Numbered from the whole stretch's first letter, positions 35,715-47,873 are shown. The stretch is 63,990 bases of DNA, filler included, from 6 parts of 6 records of this genome joined end to end with filler, not necessarily neighbours in it, one strand, 5' to 3'. Translations and numbers: made by a program. The notes: generated by a model from the letters alone, not told the origin.

Positions 35715-36977
35715 CTATTCCCCGTGTGCCTTGAGCAGCGCTCTTGTTTCAGGAGCCTTGATAAACTTTTCGTAAAGCGCGGCCTCTGTCTTTGGAGCGC
35801 TGTTCTTTTTGCCACCGAAAAGGCTGGGCTTCTTTTTGTAATAAGCAGCGAAGTAATTGTTCATGAACTGGGTACGGGAAGAACCCGAGCGGTGCTCATG
35901 TTTGGTCTCTTCTTTCAAACCTTCAACACCATCCGTCATCGAACTGAAAAGACCACCGGACTTGGCATCATCTCCCGTCTCGCTGCTACCTGCGGTGAGG
36001 AACCCGAAAAATGCATTGCCGCTTTCTTTCTGGCCATCCGAAGACGCGTTCGTTCCACCACCAGATTTTTCGGCGAGCTGAATTTTCTGGTTCGCCCCTT
36101 CCGCAGCCAAGCGCGCGGACTGAACTGTGGGGCCATCACTTTCCCAAGCGCTAACGGTTCCCAGCGCTGACGTCACCGAAGCCCCACCATAGCCGCAGCC
36201 ACGCACTATATCCGCGCCAAGCATATCAGCCTGATCCTCCTGGAAACGTTTGGCTACATTTTCCAAGCGCCGATCAAATCCGACCTCGTCACCCATTGCC
36301 CGGCTGACAGCACCACCAACCGTCTTGAAGCCCGAGAGAAGCCCGCCTCCAATGCTGCCCAGCATACCTCCACCGGATGAATCTGAATCTGCTGCACTTC
36401 GCGCCACATCCCCTATCGGGTCGATAGAGTGTTGCATGATCACATGCGCATATTCGTGACTGATAAAGAACAGAAGGTGTCGAGGGTCTTTCGTTTTGCT
36501 GAATAATCGCGGATCGACCAGAATAATTCCGCTTTTCCGAGCCTCCAGCAAAAGACTGGTATCAGTCGGCAATCTATCGCGCTTGTGAGCAATGCGGAAC
36601 TCTACCGGGACTTTCGGTATGTCTTCCTTTACGCGCGCTAGGCAGCCCTGCAGGAGATTACTCAAAAAAGCTTCTGCGACTGGTGCCTTCAGAACCACGA
36701 TACTCTGTTTGGCTATATCGATTTCGTCTTCGGCGCGACGTGCCTGCAAGGCAGCCGGGCTGAGATCATGGCGGGAGAACATCTCCGGGTAGATCCGGAT
36801 CATGCGGTCCTCGGGAAGCTCCTGATCCATCAACTCCATGCTCGTTGTGCCGTCCTTATTTTTGACCTCGAGCCACTTGAAGCCACTATTCTCATCAATG
36901 AAGTAGTTCTTATCCTCCGCTGCGGCTGGAACAGCCGCGAGCATCAGAATGGCCAGCGCCACACCGACGGTCCTCAT
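35715..36977 (-). CDS. Secreted M48-family zinc metallopeptidase
   Basis: Signal peptide MRTVGVALAILMLAAVPAAA; HEYAH zinc motif; QEDQAD third-ligand motif; late H...R; ATGA overlap with upstream gene. Confidence 0.8.
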   Translation of the reverse strand: MRTVGVALAILMLAAVPAAAEDKNYFIDENSGFKWLEVKNKDGTTSMELMDQELPEDRMIRIYPEMFSRHDLSPAALQARRAEDEIDIAKQSIVVLKAPVAEAFLSNLLQGCLARVKEDIPKVPVEFRIAHKRDRLPTDTSLLLEARKSGIILVDPRLFSKTKDPRHLLFFISHEYAHVIMQHSIDPIGDVARSAADSDSSGGGMLGSIGGGLLSGFKTVGGAVSRAMGDEVGFDRRLENVAKRFQEDQADMLGADIVRGCGYGGASVTSALGTVSAWESDGPTVQSARLAAEGANQKIQLAEKSGGGTNASSDGQKESGNAFFGFLTAGSSETGDDAKSGGLFSSMTDGVEGLKEETKHEHRSGSSRTQFMNNYFAAYYKKKPSLFGGKKNSAPKTEAALYEKFIKAPETRALLKAHGE

Positions 36978-37369
36978 TTCGTGCACCCTGCGCCAAAACC
37001 TCGCCCGGTACCGCCCGAACCAGCGGCGACGGATGAGACCTGCGTCCGGCATTTTTTCTGAAACTCGGCGTCGAGGTTAGTCTCAACATCCTCGGAACGA
37101 ATAAGGAATTTTTTTCCCCCATCAATTTGAATTTCATAGGCCGCGCCGTCGGCTATCGAATCCAGAATTGATATTTTTTTGCCTTCCAGCTCAATGCGAA
37201 GAAGCGCACCCGCCGGCTCCTGGGTATCCAAATCAAACAGGTCCAGTTGCGGCGGCAGGATCTTGGTCACGCTCGTGGGTGTGTCTGCTGAGGCCCAATT
37301 TACTATAACCACACCTGCAAGCAACATCACAGCAAGCCCAAAGGTTTTGAAATAACGCAAGAAATTCAT
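36974..37369 (-). CDS. Small secreted hypothetical protein with C-terminal Cys-x21-Cys Gly-rich tail
   Basis: Signal peptide; ends CRTQVSSVAAGSGGTGRGFGAGCTK; ATGA overlaps on both sides. Confidence 0.8.
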   Translation of the reverse strand: MNFLRYFKTFGLAVMLLAGVVIVNWASADTPTSVTKILPPQLDLFDLDTQEPAGALLRIELEGKKISILDSIADGAAYEIQIDGGKKFLIRSEDVETNLDAEFQKKCRTQVSSVAAGSGGTGRGFGAGCTK

Positions 37370-38919
37370 ATCGACTCTCCCCTGATCGATTGATTTCGCA
37401 AAACTGAAGTCAACAGTTGAAGCAACCGGGAAAGCCCCCGCTCCAGTGCTTCAAAATAGAAACTCCCCGAAACGCCACGGACCGTTGCAATCAGCCCAAA
37501 AAGACCAAGAAGGTTCAGCGGCGCTAACCGGAAGAGCCAGACCTGAACGATTGTCAGGAGCAGTAAGATCGACAGGTAAAAACCGTGTGCCGCCAAACTC
37601 ACGATCAAATGCCGTCCTAGTTTCCGGTCATCTTTTTGGAGAAAGCTCTCGGTCGAGAAAGAAGCGAACGCATGGATCGTGCTCAGCAACACGAGGGCTA
37701 CGAGAAACACTGTTTCCGGCGTGACAGTGACCGATCGGGCAGCATCTTCAGAGAGGAACGGAACCGATATGCTGATTTTTGATTTCAGATAATTGTCACC
37801 ATCGCGACGCAAATTTTCCAGAGCCATGGCATGGCGATATCCTGAAGAAACCCGAGGTTGCGTCGGCGGGTCGACAAAGTCTGAAACGCCGACTAGAGCT
37901 TGCCCGTAAACAACATCCTTGCCAGCAATGCGGTCTGACAGCTCTTTTGCGACATAAGCGCTTGCCGACGGAGAGAACCCTTCATGCAACAGGTTCGTCA
38001 CCGATATCACTGGCATATAGGGGCACTGCTCCTCGGCCTTTGCGACACTTTCGAACATCACTGTGGACAAGAGCTTCTTGCTCACGTCCCACACCGATTG
38101 CTTAGCCGAATAATTGCAGCCCTTCAGAAAATCATTCTTCGCGGACGGTACGATCCCCCATTGGATTTGAAGTGGGCTTTCGAACCGAAGATCATCCGCA
38201 CTGGGTTTCAATTCGGATTTCCCGCAATCGCCTCTGGAACAGCCATGCAGGTAGAGTGCAAAGGCGGGGAAAGTCCTTTCAAAGCCTCGCTTTTCGTAAT
38301 CTTCTTTGCTGGCTCCCTCATTCGAACGCGACGCGCGCGTTACTTTCCGCAAAATATATTCTTCGTCATTCAGTCCTTGTTGAGCGCGCGTTGCCAAAAC
38401 AGTACGGGTAAGGTCCCGAATTTCTGCGCGTTGCCGTTTAAACGGCAATACCGGCAAATAGACCGGGATCTCCGCCTCAATGTACTTCTCTAAAACCGGA
38501 ACCAGCCGTCCAATAGTCGGATCTTCCCGCTGGTCGATAAACAGGAAGTCCATATAGATCGATCGTGGGCGATATTTCAAAATTTCATCAAGGACCCGGG
38601 CATGGTTTTGATAGCTGACCGGCCAAATCCAGTCATGTGACCGTAAATCGCGGTCATCAATCATGACGACGGGAACATTATCCCGCTCAGCAGTATCGTG
38701 AAACGGTGCAACTAAAAGGCTATAAGCCCTGTAGGTGAAATTTTCCGTTATCCCCCCAAGTCCAAACAGATCTGTAAAAACTCCAAACAGCACAAAGGCT
38801 AAGACCAGAAAAAGCCTGATCAGCCGCGCTTTAAGTCCGCCGTAGCAATGCAGGAGGCTACGCCCCCGATAATTGCGGATGAACTCGGTAACAAGCCCTC
38901 TGTTTTGAGCTTCTGACAT
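37366..38919 (-). CDS. CHASE2-domain membrane protein with no cytoplasmic output domain
   Basis: N-terminal TM; VVMIDDRDL...WPVS...HARVLDEI...RPRSIYMDFLF; GKDVVYG, HAMALENL; three C-terminal TMs then a short tail. Confidence 0.78.
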   Translation of the reverse strand: MSEAQNRGLVTEFIRNYRGRSLLHCYGGLKARLIRLFLVLAFVLFGVFTDLFGLGGITENFTYRAYSLLVAPFHDTAERDNVPVVMIDDRDLRSHDWIWPVSYQNHARVLDEILKYRPRSIYMDFLFIDQREDPTIGRLVPVLEKYIEAEIPVYLPVLPFKRQRAEIRDLTRTVLATRAQQGLNDEEYILRKVTRASRSNEGASKEDYEKRGFERTFPAFALYLHGCSRGDCGKSELKPSADDLRFESPLQIQWGIVPSAKNDFLKGCNYSAKQSVWDVSKKLLSTVMFESVAKAEEQCPYMPVISVTNLLHEGFSPSASAYVAKELSDRIAGKDVVYGQALVGVSDFVDPPTQPRVSSGYRHAMALENLRRDGDNYLKSKISISVPFLSEDAARSVTVTPETVFLVALVLLSTIHAFASFSTESFLQKDDRKLGRHLIVSLAAHGFYLSILLLLTIVQVWLFRLAPLNLLGLFGLIATVRGVSGSFYFEALERGLSRLLQLLTSVLRNQSIRGESI

Positions 38920-39067
38920 TCCATCCCCACTCAGAAGCGCGGAATAACAAATTATTCAATTAATGCGCGCTTTTAAAGTTAACAAAATGATAAGATTTGG
39001 CAACGTTTCGTCTTGGAATAATTTTCAAATGCTGCCTGATACGGCTTCCTCAACAAGACACCTGTCC

Positions 39068-39096
39068 TTGACAAGTTTGTGACCGCGCCGCAGGTT
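39068..39096 (+). promoter_or_regulatory. Sigma70 promoter feeding the TPP riboswitch
   Basis: TTGACA-N17-CAGGTT, predicted start site at the 5' end of the aptamer. Confidence 0.55.
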
Positions 39097-39102
39097 GGCC
39101 CG

Positions 39103-39188
39103 GTGATGCTGGGGTGTTCCGGGTGACCGGAACTGAGAGGATACCCATCGAACCTGATCCGGGTCATGCCGGCGCAGGGAGACGTCAC
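39103..39188 (+). ncRNA. TPP riboswitch (THI element)
   Basis: gtgatg ct GGGGTG ttccgg..ccggaa CTGAGA ggat ACCC atc GAACCTGAT ccggGTcATgCCggCGcAGGGA ga cgtcac: CTGAGA, ACCTGAT and AGGGA signatures plus P1 pairing. Confidence 0.93.
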
Positions 39189-39274
39189 GAGACTGCATCA
39201 GCGGTCGCGTCAGGTCCTCTCGCCCCGATTTTGAATCTACCGTTCCGCCGAGCGGGACTATTGGAGTGCCGGGA

Positions 39275-40390
39275 ATGTTCCTGAAATCCGCCGCTGTTGC
39301 GCTGACCGCGCTGATGGCTACTGCGTTGACCGCAAAAGCCGAGACAATCCCCGTGCTGGTGCCGATCACCGGCTTCCTGTCGCTTGAGGGCAGCTCCCAG
39401 CGCAATGGCGCGGTGCTGGCCATCGAGCGCTATGGCAAGGATCTCGATCTGGACGCCGAAGTGACCGACACGGGCACGTCTCCCGAGGGTGCCGTCACCG
39501 CATTGCGCCGCGCACTGGAGGGCGAACCGACCGCCGCCGTTGCCTCCATGCTCGGCACGCAGATGCTTGCCATGCTGCCGATCGCGGGCCGCGCCGGTGT
39601 GCCGCTGCTCACCGTTTCCGGCACGGCGAAGATCACAGAAATCGGTATTCCCTGGGTATTCCGTTTCTTTCCCGGCGACAGCGTTGTGAAGGTGGCGCAG
39701 GCCCGGTACGCGGTCGAGGAGCTCGGCGCCAAGCGCCCGGCCCTTCTGTATCAAACCACCGCCTACGGGCAGAGCGGCGCGGAACATCTGCGCCGGATCA
39801 TGCAGGATCTCGGTGCGCCGCTGGTATTCGAAGAAGCCATCGACATCTCCGTGAAGGACATGCTGCCGGCCCTGACCCGGATGCAGGAAGCCAAACCCGA
39901 CCTGATCCTGCTGCATCTGCATTCCGGCTCCACCGCTCTGGTGATCCGCCAGGCGCGGGACCAGAACATCGCCCTGCCGATCCTTGCCGGCTCCGCCATG
40001 CACCAGCCGACCACGGCTGCCCTGCTGGAGCCGAAGCAGCTCGCCGGTGTCTGTGCCGAAAGCGCCTCCTCGCCGATTTCCGAGCCGGAAGGGCCGGTCG
40101 AGGATTTCACGTCGGAATACCGGGCCCGTTTTGGCGCCGAGCCGGACGCTTTCGCGCTGGCCCAGTATGACGGCGCCACCATGATGATCGCTGCGCGGAA
40201 TTCAGGCGCCAAAACCGCAGAAGAAGTGCGAGACTGGCTGGCAAACAACAGCTATGACGGGCTCGCCATGACCTACAAATCCGACGGCAAGGGCAACATG
40301 GCGCATGACGCGGTCATTGTTTGTTACGACGGCAAAAGCGCGGTGCCCGCAATCAAGCGGCGCTACGAGAATGTCAGTGGCGTGAAATAA
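39275..40390 (+). CDS. LIV/HAAT-family ABC substrate-binding protein, TPP-riboswitch associated
   Basis: Signal peptide; PITG, DTGTSPEGAV, WVFRFFP, AYGQSG, YDG motifs of PBP-I (LivJ/K-like) proteins. Confidence 0.88.
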   Translation: MFLKSAAVALTALMATALTAKAETIPVLVPITGFLSLEGSSQRNGAVLAIERYGKDLDLDAEVTDTGTSPEGAVTALRRALEGEPTAAVASMLGTQMLAMLPIAGRAGVPLLTVSGTAKITEIGIPWVFRFFPGDSVVKVAQARYAVEELGAKRPALLYQTTAYGQSGAEHLRRIMQDLGAPLVFEEAIDISVKDMLPALTRMQEAKPDLILLHLHSGSTALVIRQARDQNIALPILAGSAMHQPTTAALLEPKQLAGVCAESASSPISEPEGPVEDFTSEYRARFGAEPDAFALAQYDGATMMIAARNSGAKTAEEVRDWLANNSYDGLAMTYKSDGKGNMAHDAVIVCYDGKSAVPAIKRRYENVSGVK

Positions 40391-40414
40391 GCAGCCACCC
40401 GGCAACACCCCAGC

Positions 40415-41308
40415 ATGTCAGCCATTGCCCTCACCCAGATCCTGCTGAACGGCCTCGCTCTCGGGGCCGCTTACGCCTTGATCGCACTCGGCTTCGTCAT
40501 CGTGCTGAATGCGGCGGGAGCGGTGAATTTCGCCCAGGGCGAGCTGGTCATGGCGGGCGGGTTCGCCGCCATCGCGCTTGCCCCGCTGATCGGTGAGACG
40601 ACGGCGCTTCCGGGACTTTTCCTGCTGCCGCTGGTGATGGGGCTGATGGGGTTGATCGGGGCCGGGTTTGCCTGGATTGCCTATTTCCCCGTCCGCAAAC
40701 GCCACCAGGTCGCGGTCTTCGTCAGCACCATCGCCGCCGGGCTGGTGCTGCAGCATCTGGCGAACGCCGTTTTCGGCGCTGCGCCCCGCGCTGGACCACC
40801 GCTGATCTCCGGTAATGGCCTGACAGTCGGCGCCCTCTCCATCTCGCTTCAGCAGATCGCCGTAATGATCTGTGCCGCCGTGCTGATTTCCGGCACGGGG
40901 CTGTTTCTCGGCCGCACCCAGACCGGACGGCATATGCGGGCCGTGGCGCAGGACCCGGAAATGGCCGCCGCCATCGGCATCCGGCCGAAACGCATGATCA
41001 CGCTGTCCTTTGCGCTCGCCATCGCGCTCGCGGGCGCGGCGGGCCTGCTGCTGTCCAACCAGTTCTTCGTCAGTCCGAACGATGGCGGACTGTTCATGCT
41101 GAAAGCCTATATCGCGGTCACCATCGGCGGCTGGGGCAGGCTCGACGGGGCCGTGATCGGCGCGCTGCTGATCGGTATCTTCGAGACACTCGTGGCCGCG
41201 TTCGCCTCCTATCTGGTGGCGGAGGCACTGCTCTATGCCCTGCTGCTGATCATGCTGGTCTTCCGGCCTTCCGGGTTGCTGCCGGAGCGGGCCCGCGCCC
41301 GTGTCTGA
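40415..41308 (+). CDS. LivH-like ABC permease
   Basis: NGLALGAAYALIALG, VNFAQGE, TGRHMRAVAQD, IGGWG. Confidence 0.9.
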   Translation: MSAIALTQILLNGLALGAAYALIALGFVIVLNAAGAVNFAQGELVMAGGFAAIALAPLIGETTALPGLFLLPLVMGLMGLIGAGFAWIAYFPVRKRHQVAVFVSTIAAGLVLQHLANAVFGAAPRAGPPLISGNGLTVGALSISLQQIAVMICAAVLISGTGLFLGRTQTGRHMRAVAQDPEMAAAIGIRPKRMITLSFALAIALAGAAGLLLSNQFFVSPNDGGLFMLKAYIAVTIGGWGRLDGAVIGALLIGIFETLVAAFASYLVAEALLYALLLIMLVFRPSGLLPERARARV

Positions 41309-42968
41309 CCCGCGCTCCCGTCTGGCTCTGGGCGTCGTCGCCATTGCGCTGGCGCTCTATGCCCTGTTCTTTGCCGGCGATTACGCGCTGCACGTCCTGA
41401 CCCGCGCCGGAATCTATGCCATCGCCGCCATCGGCTATCAGCTCATCTTCGGCCGCCTTGGCGCCCTGTCGCTGGCGCAGGGCTGCTTCTTCGGGCTCGG
41501 CGCCTATGCGGCTGGTCTTGGCGCGCTGGAACTCGGCCTCGGATTTCCGCTGACGCTGGCCGCCGGCATCCTGCTACCGAGCCTTCTCGCGGCGCTCATC
41601 GCCATTCCCGTGCTCCGTCTCGCCTCGCACTATTTCGCGCTCGCCACCCTCGGCATCGCCCAGCTCGGCCTGCTCGTCGCGACCAACTGGACGGCGGTCA
41701 CCGGCGGTGCGAACGGACTCTACGGAGTACCGCCCATCGAGATCGGCGCGGTTTCCATCGGGCATGGCTTGCCGCTCACCATGCTGGTCTGGGCTTGTGT
41801 AGGACTTGCCCTCACCATCTCGCACCGGATGACAGCCGGGAAACGCGGGCTTGCGGTCGAAACCCTGCGGGAAGCGCCTCTAGCCGCCGGCGCGCTCGGT
41901 ATCGACGGGGCCGCGATCCGCTTTCGCTTCTTCGTCGCCAGCGCAGCCCTCGGCGGCCTTGCGGGGGCGTTGCAGGCACACGCGATCGGTGTCGTCTCGC
42001 CGGACGTGCTGCAATTCCATGTCCTCGCTCTGATTCTCGCCATGAGCGTGATCGGCGGACACGCCTCCCCCCTCGGGGCCGTACTTGGCGCCCTGCTGCT
42101 CGTCCATCTGCCGGAATGGTTCCGGGACTTTGCCGACTATTACCTTGTGGTCTATGGCGCGGCCCTGCTCGCCGCCATCATCTTCCTGCCGCGCGGGCTT
42201 GCCGGTCTGTTCGGGACAAACAAAACGCCCGCAGCAACACCAGAAAAGGATATGGCACCGCGCCCGCCTGCTGCGCTCAGGTTAACGGTGGAAACGGTCT
42301 CCAAGCATTTCGGCGGCGTGACCGCGCTCGACGGAGTCTCCCTCACCCTTGCCCCCGGCGAAATTCTCGGCCTGATAGGCCCGAACGGTTCCGGCAAGAC
42401 AACGCTGGTCAACCTGCTCTCCGGCATCGAAAAGCCGGATGGAGGGCGCGTCCTGCTCGGTGATGCCGACATTACCGGAAGGCCTCCGGAATACATCGCC
42501 CGTTCCGGTCTCTGCCGCAGCTTCCAGCATCCGCAGATCGCGCCGGACCTGACCGTGCTGGAGAGCGTCGAGGCGGTCACGACAGAGGGAGAGAGTGCCG
42601 ATGCCCGCGTGACAGAAGTCGGGCTCTCAGACGGTGCGAACGAAAAAGCCGGAACCCTGCCACCGGCAGCCCTGAAGCATCTCGAAATCGCCCGCGCCCT
42701 TGCCGCCGGTGCCTCCATCCTGGCTCTGGACGAGCCGGCCGCCGGGATGAACGAGGTGGAGCGCGCGGAACTCTCCGCCTTGCTGAAACGGCTGGCGGAT
42801 GCGGGCCACGGCATCCTGCTGATCGATCACGCGATGGACTTCCTGCTGCCTCTGGCGGACCGGGTGGTCTGCCTCAGCGCCGGGCAGGTCGTTGCCGAGG
42901 GAACACCCAGCGACGTTGCCCGCGATCCGGCAGCCATCAGTGCCTATTTCGGGGAGAGCCCGCTGTGA
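41301..42968 (+). CDS. Fused LivM-like permease / LivG-like ATPase
   Basis: LSLAQGCFFGLGAY, HYFALATLG, TGGANG; then GPNGSGKT, RSFQ, LDEPAAG, IDH; ABC signature degenerate (LPPAA). Confidence 0.88.
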   Translation: MSDPRSRLALGVVAIALALYALFFAGDYALHVLTRAGIYAIAAIGYQLIFGRLGALSLAQGCFFGLGAYAAGLGALELGLGFPLTLAAGILLPSLLAALIAIPVLRLASHYFALATLGIAQLGLLVATNWTAVTGGANGLYGVPPIEIGAVSIGHGLPLTMLVWACVGLALTISHRMTAGKRGLAVETLREAPLAAGALGIDGAAIRFRFFVASAALGGLAGALQAHAIGVVSPDVLQFHVLALILAMSVIGGHASPLGAVLGALLLVHLPEWFRDFADYYLVVYGAALLAAIIFLPRGLAGLFGTNKTPAATPEKDMAPRPPAALRLTVETVSKHFGGVTALDGVSLTLAPGEILGLIGPNGSGKTTLVNLLSGIEKPDGGRVLLGDADITGRPPEYIARSGLCRSFQHPQIAPDLTVLESVEAVTTEGESADARVTEVGLSDGANEKAGTLPPAALKHLEIARALAAGASILALDEPAAGMNEVERAELSALLKRLADAGHGILLIDHAMDFLLPLADRVVCLSAGQVVAEGTPSDVARDPAAISAYFGESPL

Positions 42969-43684
42969 GCTCCTCACTGCTCTCTTTCCGGAATGTCTCG
43001 GTGCGGCGTGGCGGCGCGATAGCCGTGCGCGATCTCACGCTCGATATTGCACCGGGTGAGATTGTCGCCCTGATTGGCCTGAATGGCGCCGGCAAATCGA
43101 GCATTCTACGGGCAGCCATGGGGCTGGAAGCGCTCACAGAGGGCAAAATCCTGTTCCGTGAGCAGTCACTTGCCGAAATGGGCACACCTGAGCGGGCGCG
43201 GCGCGGCATCGGATATTGCCCAGAAGGGCGCCGCCTGTTCCCCGGCATGAGCGTTTCGGACACGCTGCATGCGGCGATGCAGGCACCGCGCAGGCAACGC
43301 CTCGCACGGATCGAAGAGCTCACAAATCTCTTCCCCCTGCTCGGCACCATACTTGACCGGGAGAGCTGGAGCCTCAGCGGCGGGCAGCAACAGGTCGTCG
43401 CCATCGCCCGCGCGCTGATGCAGCGCCCGGAAATCCTGCTGCTGGACGAGCCGTCTCTCGGCCTTGCCCCCGTCATCTGTCAGGAGCTGTTTCCGGCCAT
43501 CCGGCAACTCGCGAATGACGGTGCTGCCGTGCTGCTGGCTGAACAGAGCACAGCCACGGCCCTCGCTGTCGCCGACCGGATAGCGGTGCTGCATCGGGGC
43601 ACTCTTGTCCTGAACGAGCCCGTAGCGGCACTTTCTCACGACCGCTTGAAAACAATCCTGCTTTCCGAGGGTGAACAGCACTGA
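42965..43684 (+). CDS. LivF-like ABC ATPase
   Basis: GLNGAGKS, PEGRRLF, LSGGQQQ, LLLDEPSLGLAP, AEQ. Confidence 0.9.
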   Translation: MSSSLLSFRNVSVRRGGAIAVRDLTLDIAPGEIVALIGLNGAGKSSILRAAMGLEALTEGKILFREQSLAEMGTPERARRGIGYCPEGRRLFPGMSVSDTLHAAMQAPRRQRLARIEELTNLFPLLGTILDRESWSLSGGQQQVVAIARALMQRPEILLLDEPSLGLAPVICQELFPAIRQLANDGAAVLLAEQSTATALAVADRIAVLHRGTLVLNEPVAALSHDRLKTILLSEGEQH

Positions 43685-43740
43685 CGCTTGGTTTATGCTC
43701 GCCAAAAATCGACTTGCCCGCCTTAGGAGATCCCCCGTCG

Positions 43741-44427
43741 ATGGACGAGAGCCAGACACCCGACTTCCGCCAGAGCATCGCCGAGACCGCAGCGAATATC
43801 CTGCTTGAAATCGAAGCCGTTCACATCCGCCCGGAAGAGCCGTTCACCTTCACATCCGGCCGGCTCAGCCCGGTCTATGTGGATTGCCGCAAGATCATCA
43901 GCTTCCCGCGTGCCCGGACGCAGCTGATGGAAATGGGCGTCGAGCTGCTCGCCCAGAAAGCCGGGTTCGAGCAGTTCGATGCCGTGGCCGGCGGCGAGAC
44001 GGCAGGCATTCCCTTCGCAGCCTGGATCGCCGACCTGCTCGGCCTGCCGATGCTCTATATCCGCAAGAAGCCAAAAGGCTTCGGCCGCAATGCCCGGATC
44101 GAGGGCACCTTCGAGGATGGCGCGCGCATCCTGCTGGTCGAGGACCTGGCGACGGACGGTGGCTCCAAGCTCTCCTTCATCGACGCTATCCGCGAGGCTG
44201 GCGGCGAGGTCGCCCACTGCTTCGTGGTGTTCCATTACGGCAACTTCCCGCAAAGCACCTCTTCCATGAAGGAAAAGGGCGTGGATCTGCATGGGCTCTG
44301 CACCTGGTGGGATGTCCTGGCGGCGGCGGAGAAGCGTGGCTTCACCCAAGCACAGCTCAATGAAGTGCGTCAGTTCCTGCGCGATCCGGATGGCTGGGCC
44401 GCCAGCCGCGAGACCGTCGACGTCTGA
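43741..44427 (+). CDS. pyrE: Orotate phosphoribosyltransferase
   Basis: FTFTSGRLSPVYVDCR, GGETAGIP, YIRKKPKGFG, LLVEDLATDGGS. Confidence 0.92.
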   Translation: MDESQTPDFRQSIAETAANILLEIEAVHIRPEEPFTFTSGRLSPVYVDCRKIISFPRARTQLMEMGVELLAQKAGFEQFDAVAGGETAGIPFAAWIADLLGLPMLYIRKKPKGFGRNARIEGTFEDGARILLVEDLATDGGSKLSFIDAIREAGGEVAHCFVVFHYGNFPQSTSSMKEKGVDLHGLCTWWDVLAAAEKRGFTQAQLNEVRQFLRDPDGWAASRETVDV

Positions 44428-44467
44428 TAAGAATCAAAGCAGTAAAAATCAAAATGGGGGAAGAGTG

Positions 44468-45091
44468 ATGCTGAGGATTCTCGGCCGTAACAATTCGAGC
44501 AACGTGCAGAAGGTGACATGGCTCTGCGAGGAGCTGTCGATACCGAACGAGCGCGAGGATTTCGGAGGGGCCTTCGCCAACACGAAAGACAGTCATTACC
44601 TTTCGCTGAACCCCAACTCCCGGGTCCCGACGATTATCGAGGACGATTTTGTCCTCTGGGAATCCAACGCCATCGTTCGCTACCTCTGCAACAAGTACTC
44701 GGCTGGCGACATGGCCCCGGCGGACCCGCGTGCCTATGCGGATGCGGACCGCTGGATGGATTGGCTGCAGACCACCGTTCTGGCCCCGATCACGGTGATT
44801 TTCTGGGGTCTGGTCCGGACACCCGAAGCAGAGCGCGATCTGGCGGCGATAGAGGCCGCGCGGGAAAGCATGATCCCGATCTGGAAAATCCTCGACGAAC
44901 GGCTGACGGGCCGCGACTACATCATGGGCGACAGGCTGACCATGGCGGACATCGTGCTTGCCATAAACTGCTATCGCTGGCTGACCTTGATCCAGGACCG
45001 GCCGTCCATGCCCGCGCTGGAAGCCTGGTACGCGCGCATTGCCGCACGGCCAGCCTTCAAGAAGCATGTGCTGGATATTCCGCTTACCTGA
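44468..45091 (+). CDS. Glutathione S-transferase
   Basis: GRNNSSNVQKV, LNPNSRVPT, LWESNAIVRYL, LTMADI. Confidence 0.92.
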   Translation: MLRILGRNNSSNVQKVTWLCEELSIPNEREDFGGAFANTKDSHYLSLNPNSRVPTIIEDDFVLWESNAIVRYLCNKYSAGDMAPADPRAYADADRWMDWLQTTVLAPITVIFWGLVRTPEAERDLAAIEAARESMIPIWKILDERLTGRDYIMGDRLTMADIVLAINCYRWLTLIQDRPSMPALEAWYARIAARPAFKKHVLDIPLT

Positions 45092-45179
45092 TCACCGATG
45101 CAGGGGCACGGCGCTGGAAATCACCCGCCGTGCCTCCTATCCTTATAAGATCTATCCACTGAGACGGAGACAGCCCCCG

Positions 45180-46880
45180 ATGCGACGATCCGCCCGCGTC
45201 CTGACCTTCTGGCTGCTCCTGTTTCTTTCCCTGCTTCCCCTTGCCCGCTCAGCCGATGCGCGCGAACAACTTGTCATCGGGATCACCCAGTTCCCGACGA
45301 CCCTGAACCCGATGATCGATTCCATGCTGGTGAAGACCTATGTGCTCGGCATGGCGCAACGGCAGGTCACCATATTCGGCCATGACTGGGAGCCGATCTG
45401 CCTCTGGTGCACCGAGTTACCGACCTTCGAGAACGAGCGGGCGAAACGCTTTGCTCTGCTCGATGCCACGGGGAAGGAAACCGGCCGCGAAGGCGTGCGG
45501 ACCACCTACACCATCAAGCCCGGTGCCTTCTGGGGCGACGGCACGCCGATTACCACCGATGACGTACTTTTCAGCTGGGAAGTCGGGCGCCATCCGGAAA
45601 CCGGCGTCGCGGATGCCAACAGCTATCAGGAAATTGTCGATATCGAGGTCGAGGACGAGCGCACCTTCAGCATCGTCCGGGACAAGATCGATTACCGCTA
45701 CAACACGCTCGGCGATTTCCAGCTCCTGCCCGCCCATCTGGAACGCGCCGCTTTCGCGAACCCTCAGGAATACAAGAACCGCACCCTCTACAAGACCGCG
45801 CCCGGCACGCCAGGCCTCTATAACGGCCCCTACCGGGTCACGGAGGTGAATGAGGGCGCCTATATCGTGCTGGCCCGGAACGAGCACTGGAAAGGCAAGG
45901 AGCCAGCCTTTGAGCGTATCGTGGTCAAAACCATCGAAAAGACCGCCGCGCTTGAGGCCAATCTGCTTTCCGGCTCCATCGACTATATCGCGGGCGAGGC
46001 CGGACTCACCCTCGATCAGGCGCTCGGTTTCGAGAAACGCCATGGCGACACGTTCGACGTCATCTACAAACCCGGCCTGATCTACGAGCATATCGAGTTC
46101 AATCTCGACAACCCGGTGCTGGCCGACGTCAAGATGCGCCGGGCCCTGCTCCATGCCATCGACCGGCAGGCGATCTCCGACAGACTGTTCGACGGCAACC
46201 AGCCGGTCGCCCATGGCGCGGTCAACCCGCTGGACTGGGCCTATCACGACAAGCTGCCGCTCTATCCCTATGATCCGTCCCGCGCCAAGGCGCTGCTGGA
46301 CGAGGCAGGCTGGACCGTGATTAAGGACGGTGTCCGGTACAGGCCGGACGGCACGAAGCTCAGCCTGGAGATCATGACCACGGCCGGGAACCGGATCCGG
46401 GAGCTGGTCGAACAGGTGCTGCAGGATTACTGGAAAAAGGTCGGCATCGAGGTGACGATCCGGAACGAGCCCGCCCGGGTGTTCTTCGGCGAGACCGTTC
46501 TGAAGCGTAAATTCCCGGCTATGGCCATGTTCGCCTGGCTGTCGGCACCGGAATCCCTGCCCAAGACCACGCTCTATTCAACCTCGATCCCGACAGAGGC
46601 GAACAACTGGGCCGGACAGAACGCCACCGGCTACAACAATCCTGAAATGGATGCGCTGATCGACGCCATCGAAGTCGAGCTCGACCGGGAAAAGCGCCGC
46701 GCCCTCTGGGCCGAGCAGCAGATCCTCTATGCCACGGACCTGCCGGTCATTCCGCTCTATTTCCGGTCCGAGGCCTATATCCTGCCGAAATGGCTGAAGG
46801 GCCTGAGGCCGACCGGGCACAAATACAGCTCCACCTACTGGATCGAACAGTGGCGCGACGGATCGAGCGCGAGCCAGTAG
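45180..46880 (+). CDS. Peptide ABC transporter substrate-binding protein (family 5)
   Basis: Signal peptide; WGDGTPITTDDVLFSW, GPYRV, RRALLHAIDR, DLPVIPLY. Confidence 0.92.
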   Translation: MRRSARVLTFWLLLFLSLLPLARSADAREQLVIGITQFPTTLNPMIDSMLVKTYVLGMAQRQVTIFGHDWEPICLWCTELPTFENERAKRFALLDATGKETGREGVRTTYTIKPGAFWGDGTPITTDDVLFSWEVGRHPETGVADANSYQEIVDIEVEDERTFSIVRDKIDYRYNTLGDFQLLPAHLERAAFANPQEYKNRTLYKTAPGTPGLYNGPYRVTEVNEGAYIVLARNEHWKGKEPAFERIVVKTIEKTAALEANLLSGSIDYIAGEAGLTLDQALGFEKRHGDTFDVIYKPGLIYEHIEFNLDNPVLADVKMRRALLHAIDRQAISDRLFDGNQPVAHGAVNPLDWAYHDKLPLYPYDPSRAKALLDEAGWTVIKDGVRYRPDGTKLSLEIMTTAGNRIRELVEQVLQDYWKKVGIEVTIRNEPARVFFGETVLKRKFPAMAMFAWLSAPESLPKTTLYSTSIPTEANNWAGQNATGYNNPEMDALIDAIEVELDREKRRALWAEQQILYATDLPVIPLYFRSEAYILPKWLKGLRPTGHKYSSTYWIEQWRDGSSASQ

Positions 46881-46904
46881 CAGCATGAGAGTCCCCGGAT
46901 CATC

Positions 46905-47873
46905 ATGACCGGATTCCTGATCCGCCGCCTGCTCCAGGCTCTGATCCTGCTTTGGGTCATGTCCTTCGTGACCTATGGACTGCTGGCCCTGATGCCGGGC
47001 GATCCGATTGACCTGATGCTGGCCGGCGACCCCAGCGTGACATCCGCAGACGTGGCCCGGCTGCGTGCCCTGTATGGTCTCGACCGGCCCTTCATCGAAC
47101 GCTACGGCGATTGGCTGGCCGGGGCCCTGAAAGGCGATCTTGGTTACTCCAGACTGTTCGGAGCGCCGGTACTGGATGTTCTGACACCACGGCTGCTGAA
47201 CTCCCTGTTGCTGATGGGGCTGGCCTTCCTTCTTGCCGTCTCCATCGCCCTGCCCGCAAGCGTCGCCGCCGCCCGCCGTCCCGGCAGCATGGCGGACCGT
47301 TTGATCAACCTGCTCTGCTTTGCCGGAATATCGGTCCCGGCATTCTGGCTCGCCCTGCTGATGATCCTGTTTTTCGCCGTCACGCTCGGTCTGTTTCCGG
47401 CAAGCGGCATGGTCACAATCGGCGATGGCAGCTTCGGAGACAGGGCGGCCCATCTTGCCCTCCCTGTTTTCACCCTCGCCGTCGCCAGCATCGCCCAGTA
47501 TACCCGCCACGGCCGGGCGGCGATGATCGAGGTCCTGCGTGAAGATTATATCCGCACGGCACGGGCAAAAGGCGTCGCCGAACGGGCCATTGTCTGGCGT
47601 CACGGGTTCCGCAATGCGCTGATCCCGGTCGTGACCATCATGGCGCTCGATTTTGGCGCGCTCTTCTCCGGCGCCCTGATCGTCGAGACCATGTTCGCCT
47701 ATCTCGGCATGGGCAAGACGATCTATGACGCCGTAATGGGGAACGATTACAATCTGGCCCTTGTCGGGTTGCTGCTGGCCACCGCTGTCACCCTGACCGC
47801 AAACATCGCCGCCGACATCGCCTATGGTCTGATTGACCCGCGCATCCGGCTGACCGGCGGGCGCCGGGCATGA
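46905..47873 (+). CDS. Peptide ABC permease (OppB/DppB-like)
   Basis: MPGDP, GDLGYS, DYIRTARAKG, HGFRNALIPV. Confidence 0.92.
   Translation: MTGFLIRRLLQALILLWVMSFVTYGLLALMPGDPIDLMLAGDPSVTSADVARLRALYGLDRPFIERYGDWLAGALKGDLGYSRLFGAPVLDVLTPRLLNSLLLMGLAFLLAVSIALPASVAAARRPGSMADRLINLLCFAGISVPAFWLALLMILFFAVTLGLFPASGMVTIGDGSFGDRAAHLALPVFTLAVASIAQYTRHGRAAMIEVLREDYIRTARAKGVAERAIVWRHGFRNALIPVVTIMALDFGALFSGALIVETMFAYLGMGKTIYDAVMGNDYNLALVGLLLATAVTLTANIAADIAYGLIDPRIRLTGGRRA

Follow-up and report, generated by a model that had tools for sequence, protein, structure and literature searches.

A four-gene ATP-binding cassette (ABC) transporter operon headed by a thiamine pyrophosphate (TPP) riboswitch was analyzed in a stretch of DNA of 63,990 bases (the window, to which all coordinates given without a locus name refer). 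The transporter is of the hydrophobic amino acid uptake (HAAT) or leucine-isoleucine-valine (LIV) type, and with slightly better than even confidence we propose that it is a TPP-repressed, binding-protein-dependent importer of the thiazole moiety of thiamine (vitamin B1), that is, of hydroxyethylthiazole (HET) or its carboxylated form (cHET). The substrate-binding protein (SBP) of the system would be a candidate binder of this moiety, as suggested by phyletic patterns and by the composition of the TPP regulons, both read from genome sequences. In seawater, cHET or a close derivative is more likely to be the substrate than HET.

The riboswitch, the operon and their conserved pairing

The single Rfam family found by Infernal in the whole window was RF00059, the TPP riboswitch, at 39100-39198 of the plus strand, with a score of 65.7 bits (gathering score, 54.3; E 1.2e-10) and a full, untruncated match to model positions 1-105. 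The original prediction, made by reading the sequence, had placed a complete TPP aptamer at 39103-39188, which is essentially the same element, and had proposed a check against this covariance model; with a score above the gathering score, the aptamer is confirmed as a genuine RF00059 member. Its 3' end is separated by 76 nt from the ATG of the SBP gene. The features of the leader and of the operon are the following:

39068-39073, plus strand: TTGACA, a hexamer resembling a -35 box and possibly part of a promoter, read from the sequence
39100-39198, plus strand: TPP riboswitch aptamer (THI element, RF00059), detected by Infernal/Rfam and conserved 5' of the orthologs
39213-39229, plus strand: predicted switching segment GGUCCUCUCGCCCCGAU, from thermodynamic folding
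39263-39277, plus strand: Shine-Dalgarno (SD) sequence GGAG (39263-39266) and ATG (39275-39277) of the SBP gene, read from the sequence, with predicted pairing partners
39275-40390, plus strand: periplasmic SBP of type I (cluster B) fold, 371 amino acids (Pfam Peripla_BP_6, 157 bits)
40415-41308, plus strand: LivH/UrtB-like permease, 297 amino acids (BPD_transp_2, 114 bits)
41301-42968, plus strand: fused LivM-like permease and LivG-like ATPase, 555 amino acids (Pfam domains)
42965-43684, plus strand: LivF/UrtE-like ATPase, 239 amino acids (ABC_tran, 114 bits)

The operon (39275-43684) lies 3' of the aptamer and is made of four tightly packed genes, the start of the LivF-like gene overlapping the preceding stop by 4 nt. 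The domains detected bear out the LivK/H/MG/F-type arrangement that had been predicted, with an SBP, a permease, a permease-ATPase fusion and an ATPase, and in the fusion protein BPD_transp_2 covers residues 29-292, ABC_tran residues 343-480 and BCA_ABC_TP_C residues 529-552. This is the composition of a HAAT/LIV importer, with a type I SBP, two BPD_transp_2 domains and two ATPases, one of them carrying the BCA_ABC_TP_C tail. The N-terminus of the SBP is signal-like (MFLKSAAVALTALMATALTAKA/ETIP). No thiamine biosynthesis gene was detected within the operon by family scans, again as predicted, and the next gene after it is pyrE (43714-44427; NF001729, 350.7 bits).

All the NCBIfam equivalogs matched by the operon proteins (LivJ/K-type, LivH, LivG, LivF, UrtB, UrtD and UrtE) were far under their cut-offs. 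For the SBP, the NCBIfam scan listed only the LivJ/K-type model PRK15404 (NF011933), which was the best match with 48.2 bits for a cut-off of 477, and the archaeal urea SBP model urea_ABC_arch, with 37.3 for a cut-off of 494.8, and gave no ThiB-family (TIGR01254) match; in the Pfam and NCBIfam scans together, the SBP matched neither ThiB nor NMT1/ThiY models. The LivH-like permease reached 143.7 bits with UrtB (cut-off 250.3) and 117.8 bits with LivH, each below cut-off, the UrtD model gave 168.5 bits (cut-off 304.1), and the last ATPase gave 201.1 bits with UrtE (cut-off 285.8) and 178.6 bits with LivF (cut-off 441). By the NCBIfam cut-offs, the system is an equivalog of neither the urea transporter UrtABCDE nor LivJ/LivK.

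The pairing between aptamer and operon is conserved. Orthologs were collected from 80 loci (SBP identity 60-96%) of Nisaea, Thalassobaculaceae, SAR116, Azospirillum, Skermanella, Reyranellaceae and unclassified metagenome-assembled genomes (MAGs). The closest named locus is that of N. denitrificans DSM 18348 (L001, genome G001), with an SBP 94% identical to that of the window, which comes from a Nisaea-like alphaproteobacterium; the SBP of genome G065 is 95% identical. In 67 of the 80 loci, a loose TPP-core motif immediately precedes the ortholog in the same orientation, with no other matches in these loci, and Infernal at the gathering score added 8 of the 13 loci missed by the motif, giving an aptamer in 75 of the 80 loci, across Nisaea, Thalassobaculaceae, SAR116, Azospirillum and others, so the orthologs do not generally lack the riboswitch. 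Three loci (L002, L017 and L042) begin inside the SBP gene at a contig end, and the aptamer region is missing there. The order SBP, LivH, LivMG, LivF is kept wherever the contig permits: of 81 sources (the 80 loci and the window), 74 have the LivH-like permease gene adjoining that of the SBP, and 64 have a match to the LivMG fusion next in line, with an open reading frame (ORF) of about 1.7 kb, consistent with a fusion, in the rows inspected. No conserved thiamine gene or kinase was found beside the operon across the loci, the neighbors seen being instead pyrE and glutathione S-transferase (GST) synteny in marine lineages, carbonic anhydrase and unrelated secreted proteins. The riboswitch, its presence in 75 of 80 loci and the lack of a ThiB or NMT1/ThiY match support what the original prediction had centrally claimed, a new importer of thiamine or of a precursor.

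The action of TPP on the operon was modeled by folding the leader of this window, start codons being uncertain in the ortholog loci. The unconstrained minimum free energy structure of 39095-39300 has -85.9 kcal/mol, and in it the segment 39213-39229 is paired with GAGAGGA and GGGGUG of the aptamer core; when the aptamer helices were enforced, the energy was -79.4 kcal/mol and 39215-39229 paired with 39260-39274, including the GGAG at 39263-39266. The segment is predicted to be an anti-aptamer without TPP and an SD sequestor with TPP, in the mutually exclusive layout of an "off" switch. At low TPP it would pair into the aptamer core, with the SD sequence free and the SBP and the transporter being made, and upon TPP binding to the aptamer it would be released, pair with the SD region and turn off the translation of the first gene. 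No intrinsic terminator was found in the 39199-39274 spacer, which favors translational control.

A TTGACA promoter had also been proposed for the leader. The hexamer is present at 39068-39073, and the hexamer found 17 nt 3' of it is CAGGTT, with no recognizable -10; as a scan of 38800-44600 gave 0 sigma-70-like sites, a promoter at this position is not established. Contigs from three marine metatranscriptome runs of 2017 agree with portions of the locus to within 0-2 differences, for example 39120-39293 (X5 record 25), which spans from the aptamer to the start codon, and 39183-39343 (X2 record 12). Because the runs possibly belong to one campaign and DNA carry-over is possible, these contigs were not counted as evidence of transcription, and the parts without cover carry no meaning.

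Thiazole genes and TPP regulons of the carriers

Pathways were inferred from related genomes, whose gene content suggests the thiazole moiety as the substrate. A test that could have failed was made by comparing the 45 genomes of at least 90% completeness in the GTDB order to which G001 belongs. An SBP ortholog was found in 34 of them and was absent from 11, and ThiG and the transporter never coincided: 34 genomes had the SBP without ThiG, 8 had ThiG without the SBP, 3 had neither and 0 had both (Fisher p = 7.7e-7, with genomes and not independent events as the unit). ThiE was present in 45 of 45, and ThiB above cut-off in 1 of 45. ThiC was found in nine genomes, all of them carriers of the operon, and is missing from 25 of the 34 carriers. 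Sorted by both genes, the order is divided as follows:

thiC present, thiG absent: 9 genomes, 9 carriers
thiC absent, thiG present: 8 genomes, 0 carriers
thiC absent, thiG absent: 28 genomes, 25 carriers

The first two classes indicate that the transporter goes with missing thiazole synthesis and not with missing pyrimidine synthesis. An importer of the pyrimidine moiety or of a degradation product, such as hydroxymethylpyrimidine (HMP), aminomethylpyrimidine (AmMP) or formylaminopyrimidine (FAMP), would suit the 25 carriers without ThiC, and pyrimidine auxotrophy is described as the commonest marine B1 auxotrophy (PMC11452348; here and below, statements given with a PMC number draw on part of the source). 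Nevertheless, we consider this very unlikely, as every thiC+ genome of the order carries the operon and none of the eight thiC- thiG+ auxotrophs does, and the same genomes already possess a TPP-controlled ThiX-ThiY (NMT1) importer as well as TenA.

The TPP regulons were examined in five relatives, in which the riboswitch-controlled genes are these:

G001 and G002 (two Nisaea): thiC, thiX-thiY (BPD_transp_1 and NMT1) and the LIV operon
G003 (a Thalassobaculaceae chromosome): thiY and the LIV operon only
G005 (a SAR116 single amplified genome): thiY and the LIV operon only
G004 (Azospirillum canadense): thiC, thiO(-thiG), thiX, a LuxE-like gene and the LIV operon

The aptamer is a conserved 5' leader element of putative uptake genes, and its sister aptamers head thiC, thiO, thiM and thiX-thiY. 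The ThiY proteins, encoded elsewhere in the relatives' genomes, match NMT1 (PF09084) with 215-240 bits. ThiM was found in 9 of the 34 order carriers. Eight genomes (G070, G073, G075, G076 and G078-G081) have exactly three TPP riboswitches each and no ThiG, and the riboswitches precede thiM (thiM-thiE in G078 and G081), thiX-thiY and the LIV SBP gene; in these eight, the LIV system is the only member of the regulon that could feed ThiM. A Nisaea MAG (G066) has a riboswitch-thiM unit on top of the Nisaea regulon set.

A fifth TPP riboswitch (62.2 bits) was observed in A. canadense (L095, C2:658714-661842), before an ORF at 333-1454 of the minus strand of that locus that encodes a LuxE-type acyl-protein synthetase (PF04443, 70.9 bits) and is followed by another ORF. 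This arrangement recalls the acyl-CoA-synthetase/OarX clusters under TPP riboswitches reported in PMC11223231.

The rest of the B1 pathway was followed in the same five relatives (G001-G005) and in 50 carriers, which are those of the 80 loci picked for longer contigs, the 30 shortest or edge-truncated loci being dropped. ThiE, ThiD, ThiL and TenA were present in all five relatives. ThiG was found in G004 only, the genome that is also alone in having ThiO above cut-off. ThiM was found in none of the five, nor were ThiB (TIGR01254) and ThiK above cut-off, and Thi4 gave FAD-motif fragments only. Among the 50 carriers, ThiE was present in 48, ThiC in 27 and ThiG in 21, all 21 of the Azospirillum clade, with 29 of the 29 remaining carriers lacking it; ThiM and thiamine pyrophosphokinase were found in 0 of 50. 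Thi4 was considered as an alternative thiazole synthase and rejected, because its matches cover only the N-terminal FAD motif, about model positions 1-106 of 235.

The retention of ThiE and of ThiL in the absence of thiamine pyrophosphokinase and of ThiK argues for an importer of a precursor and not of the whole vitamin. An importer of intact thiamine, or of thiamine monophosphate (TMP) or TPP, built as a ThiBPQ analog on a LIV-type scaffold, is possible but doubtful. Whole-vitamin importers are commonly under TPP riboswitches. The niche is empty in these genomes, given how rarely ThiB is found (none of the relatives and a single genome of the order), and imported TMP would need only ThiL, which all five relatives have. 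No extra kinase would be needed either, in agreement with the 41 of 50 thiG-less carriers without ThiM, and the prototrophic Azospirillum retaining the operon would resemble E. coli retaining ThiBPQ. However, free thiamine would find neither thiamine pyrophosphokinase (0/50) nor ThiK above cut-off (0/5) in these cells, and the ThiE retained in 45 of 45 and 48 of 50 genomes, along with ThiD, TenA and a TPP-controlled pyrimidine importer, would be pointless without thiazole phosphate. Moreover, a whole-vitamin importer is expected in the thiG+ thiC- relatives too, 0 of 8 of which have the operon, and thiM shares the three-member regulon in the eight carriers listed above.

In the thiazole importer that we favor, the periplasmic SBP would capture the thiazole compound, and the LivH-like and LivM-like permeases would import it, powered by the LivG-like and LivF-like ATPases. 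Inside the cell the thiazole would be phosphorylated by ThiM where this is present and otherwise by another kinase, after which ThiE would join the thiazole phosphate with HMP pyrophosphate to give TMP, and ThiL would convert TMP to TPP.

The thiE regions of six genomes (L096-L101, from G001, G002, G003, G005, G021 and G045) contain the cluster tkt-gap-fba-thiE, with efp and suhB after thiE in three or four of the six (names judged by N-terminal sequence). The thiE gene is found there just 3' of the gene for the TPP-dependent transketolase, and it has no riboswitch of its own.

The binding protein and the weight of the evidence

The AlphaFold2 model of the SBP (pLDDT 91.9, pTM 0.89) is that of a standard type I binding protein. 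A sequence search of the PDB gave no close solved relative (best E 1.8e-17 for the sequence alone, 1.7e-29 for a profile). The model has TM-scores of 0.79-0.84 to LIV-family SBPs, and the nearest solved structures, which are 15-23% identical, have ligands that are amino acids, 2-oxo acids, aromatic acids, urea or amides. The family motif G-S-A-M-H-Q-P holds residue S240, which is invariant in 47 of 47 family sequences. In a profile alignment at about 20% identity, the S240 column holds D, from a 'GD' pair, in 3td9 and 4gnr, both amino-acid binders, N in the sequence group of 4obb (title: 3-methyl-2-oxo ligand) and D in that of 4nv3 (title: 'N280D mutant ... in complex with v...'), the last two being Anabaena sequence groups that differ at this column. 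S240 stands at the place of the acidic residue after the conserved Gly, which we take to bind the alpha-ammonium group in LivJ. The invariant Ser in place of this LivJ/LivK residue, an assignment that is indicative at such identity, speaks weakly against an alpha-amino-acid ligand and would be compatible with a carboxylate such as cHET.

An ordinary importer of amino acids, 2-oxo acids or amides that is under TPP control, and that might feed a thiazole pathway so far unrecognized or TPP-dependent enzymes, would agree with an operon that is HAAT/LIV-type throughout and with the ligands of the nearest structures. In addition, the 41 carriers without ThiG and ThiM need a route to thiazole phosphate, and a new synthase acting on an imported precursor is conceivable. 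We regard it as unlikely. The NCBIfam equivalogs are far below cut-off (48 versus 477 for the LivJ/K-type model, and UrtB, UrtD and UrtE also), and the acidic alpha-ammonium position is taken by the invariant Ser. ThiG, ThiO and Thi4 are absent, hence the known precursor-consuming pathways are missing, and the known TPP regulon is made of genes for B1 synthesis, salvage and uptake (PMC3766115).

Several observations weigh against a thiazole importer. ThiM is missing in 41 of 50 thiG-less carriers (50-locus set and order combined), so the thiazole model needs a further kinase there, and no kinase was found beside thiE in six genomes or beside thiD in three, where thiD adjoins glmM and ftsH. The carriers without ThiM would either have a non-orthologous kinase or import a form that does not require ThiM. 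It is rather improbable that the latter is the case and that a ThiM-independent thiazole is imported, whether phosphorylated cHET (cHET-P), phosphorylated HET (HET-P), ADP-thiazole (the Thi4 product, from eukaryotic phytoplankton) or another activated derivative; if true, these 41 carriers would couple it through ThiE without any kinase, and both a new traded B1 vitamer and its importer would be at hand.

Other points on the same side concern the distribution of the operon. The Azospirillum clade (21 of 71 carriers) has both ThiG and ThiC and yet keeps the riboswitch-controlled operon, so the transporter is not restricted to thiazole auxotrophs; in Azospirillum it would serve sparing or salvage, and those genomes are without ThiM too. 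Within the order, the 8 ThiG+ genomes form about three groups by their ThiG scores, which means few independent events, and the Fisher p therefore overstates the support. Three genomes of the order, G068 and G069 (with ThiM) and G071 (without it), lack thiG and yet have no transporter. At two loci, L040 and L051, no TPP aptamer was found upstream even at E <= 1. The SBP orthologs there are 62-63% identical to that of the window, the genome of L051 (G032) is thiC+ thiG- thiE+, and either the regulation was lost or another regulator took over. The genomes are mostly MAGs, so the gene absences are provisional, although the pattern is the same in two isolates and in four complete chromosomes (G002, G003, G021 and G045). 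Finally, the fold and sequence neighbors of the SBP are generic, at 15-23% identity, and the pocket argument consists of a single aligned column, near which the aromatic-acid binder 4ey3 has a D. Taking both sides together, our best reading favors the thiazole moiety and disfavors the pyrimidines (HMP and AmMP) and intact thiamine.

The 1.5-Mb genomes G068 and G069 have ThiE and ThiM, and no ThiG, ThiC, LIV SBP ortholog or TPP riboswitch was detected in them; they are dual auxotrophs with an unregulated salvage.

Neighboring genes and known B1 transport systems

On the 3' side of the transporter, pyrE begins after 30 nt, with no terminator-like site in between. The ORF listed for a GST-like protein (44291-45091) shares its first part with the end of pyrE, and since its Pfam matches begin only at residue 68, translation probably starts further downstream. 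Of the 80 loci, 30 have a pyrE match and 21 a GST match, and no locus with Azospirillum in its title is among them. These matches are on the same strand and 3' of LivF in almost every row inspected, and in L014 the GST match is upstream and on the opposite strand. Further on, at 45039-47873 of the plus strand, an Opp/Nik-type ABC system starts with an SBP_bac_5 protein (a 613-amino-acid ORF, with matches from residue 150), and the best match of its permease is the nickel permease Opp2B, with 278.6 bits, below the cut-off of 350. On the other side, divergent and 5' of the riboswitch, a CHASE2-domain protein of 517 amino acids is encoded on the minus strand (37366-38919; PF05226, 42.7 bits, no NCBIfam match), a neighbor that recurs only in L006 (48% identity). 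Beyond it, also on the minus strand (35715-37052), there is a weakly M48-peptidase-like protein of 445 amino acids. In an Azospirillum MAG, a small RNA of the mmgR/suhB family was detected a few kb 3' of the operon (L043:11627-11704, minus strand; RF00519, 49.2 versus 41 bits).

In the sea and in soil, many bacteria are unable to synthesize one half of B1, or both, and depend on its release by other organisms. The known importers are ThiBPQ and ThiT for the vitamin, and ThiXYZ, ThiV and CytX for the pyrimidine half. To our knowledge, the field has no uptake marker for the thiazole half, and no binding-protein-dependent bacterial thiazole importer was found in the literature searched. The operon is a candidate for the first such system found for the thiazole half, and it belongs to a transporter family without an earlier link to B1.

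The published work agrees with the claim, made in the original prediction, that the known B1 transporters are not LIV-type. The B1 transporters named in the portion of PMC10881298 used here are thiB, thiT, thiY, thiV, cytX, ykoF, thiPerm and omr1, and in PMC3766115, 19 orthologs of thiamin or precursor transporters are counted, which are named only in its Additional file 5. The 2026 time-series study PMC12998435 has the kinase gene thiM standing in for a cHET "transporter". According to PMC5899164, E. coli delta-thiG grows on sub-picomolar cHET, for which that part of the paper names no transporter; the same source describes ThiM-dependence in Ostreococcus and a presumed low-affinity transport or diffusion for HET. 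The part of PMC11223231 consulted mentions no LIV-type system of this sort. Outside the supplement that names the orthologs of PMC3766115, no LIV/HAAT-type transporter tied to a TPP riboswitch or to thiamine was found described in the literature, including that on TPP regulons, and a prior in-silico listing, for instance of Azospirillum in RegPrecise or in that supplement, is possible.

If the proposal is true, a purifiable, riboswitch-marked SBP for HET or cHET would be available, along with a gene marker of thiazole salvage in metagenomes. Thousands of such genes are now labeled "branched-chain amino acid ABC transporter", a label that would need correcting. Since most carriers possess ThiE but no recognized supply of thiazole phosphate, a further kinase or a new vitamer is to be expected.

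Compared with known systems, the one described here resembles ThiBPQ, the importer of thiamine, TMP and TPP in E. coli and Salmonella, in being a binding-protein-dependent ABC importer, putatively of a B1 compound, with a TPP riboswitch at its head and with a presence in prototrophs too. It differs in belonging to another ABC family and in that the gene content points to thiazole and not to the whole vitamin; ThiB itself is a type II, iron-binding-protein-like SBP, of a fold class unlike that of the SBP of the window. ThiXYZ, which imports HMP or formylaminopyrimidine, is likewise a TPP-riboswitch ABC importer of half of thiamine, found in the same genomes and in the same regulon. By comparison, ThiY has the NMT1 fold (PF09084) and the SBP of the window is Peripla_BP_6, the permeases are BPD_transp_1 there and BPD_transp_2 here, and the LIV operon follows the loss of thiG and not that of thiC.

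ThiW is said to have been predicted by Rodionov et al. (2002/2009) as a component for hydroxyethylthiazole uptake in Firmicutes, reportedly an S component of the energy-coupling factor type, and its name occurs in PMC6593275. It would share with the present system the proposed thiazole substrate class and the TPP-riboswitch control, whereas it is a small membrane S component without a periplasmic binding protein, with no sequence or architectural relation. The closest architecture is that of LivJ/LivK-LivHMGF (HAAT, TC 3.A.1.4), with the same five domains and SBP fold (TM-score 0.79-0.84). The HAAT offshoots that were compared are the Urt urea transporter, the amide sensor AmiC and the aromatic-acid binders of Rhodopseudomonas palustris (4evq, 4ey3 and 4evs). 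The system of the window differs from the HAAT members in an SBP only 15-23% identical, in the fusion of LivM with LivG, in the invariant Ser in place of the acidic residue and in the TPP riboswitch at its head.

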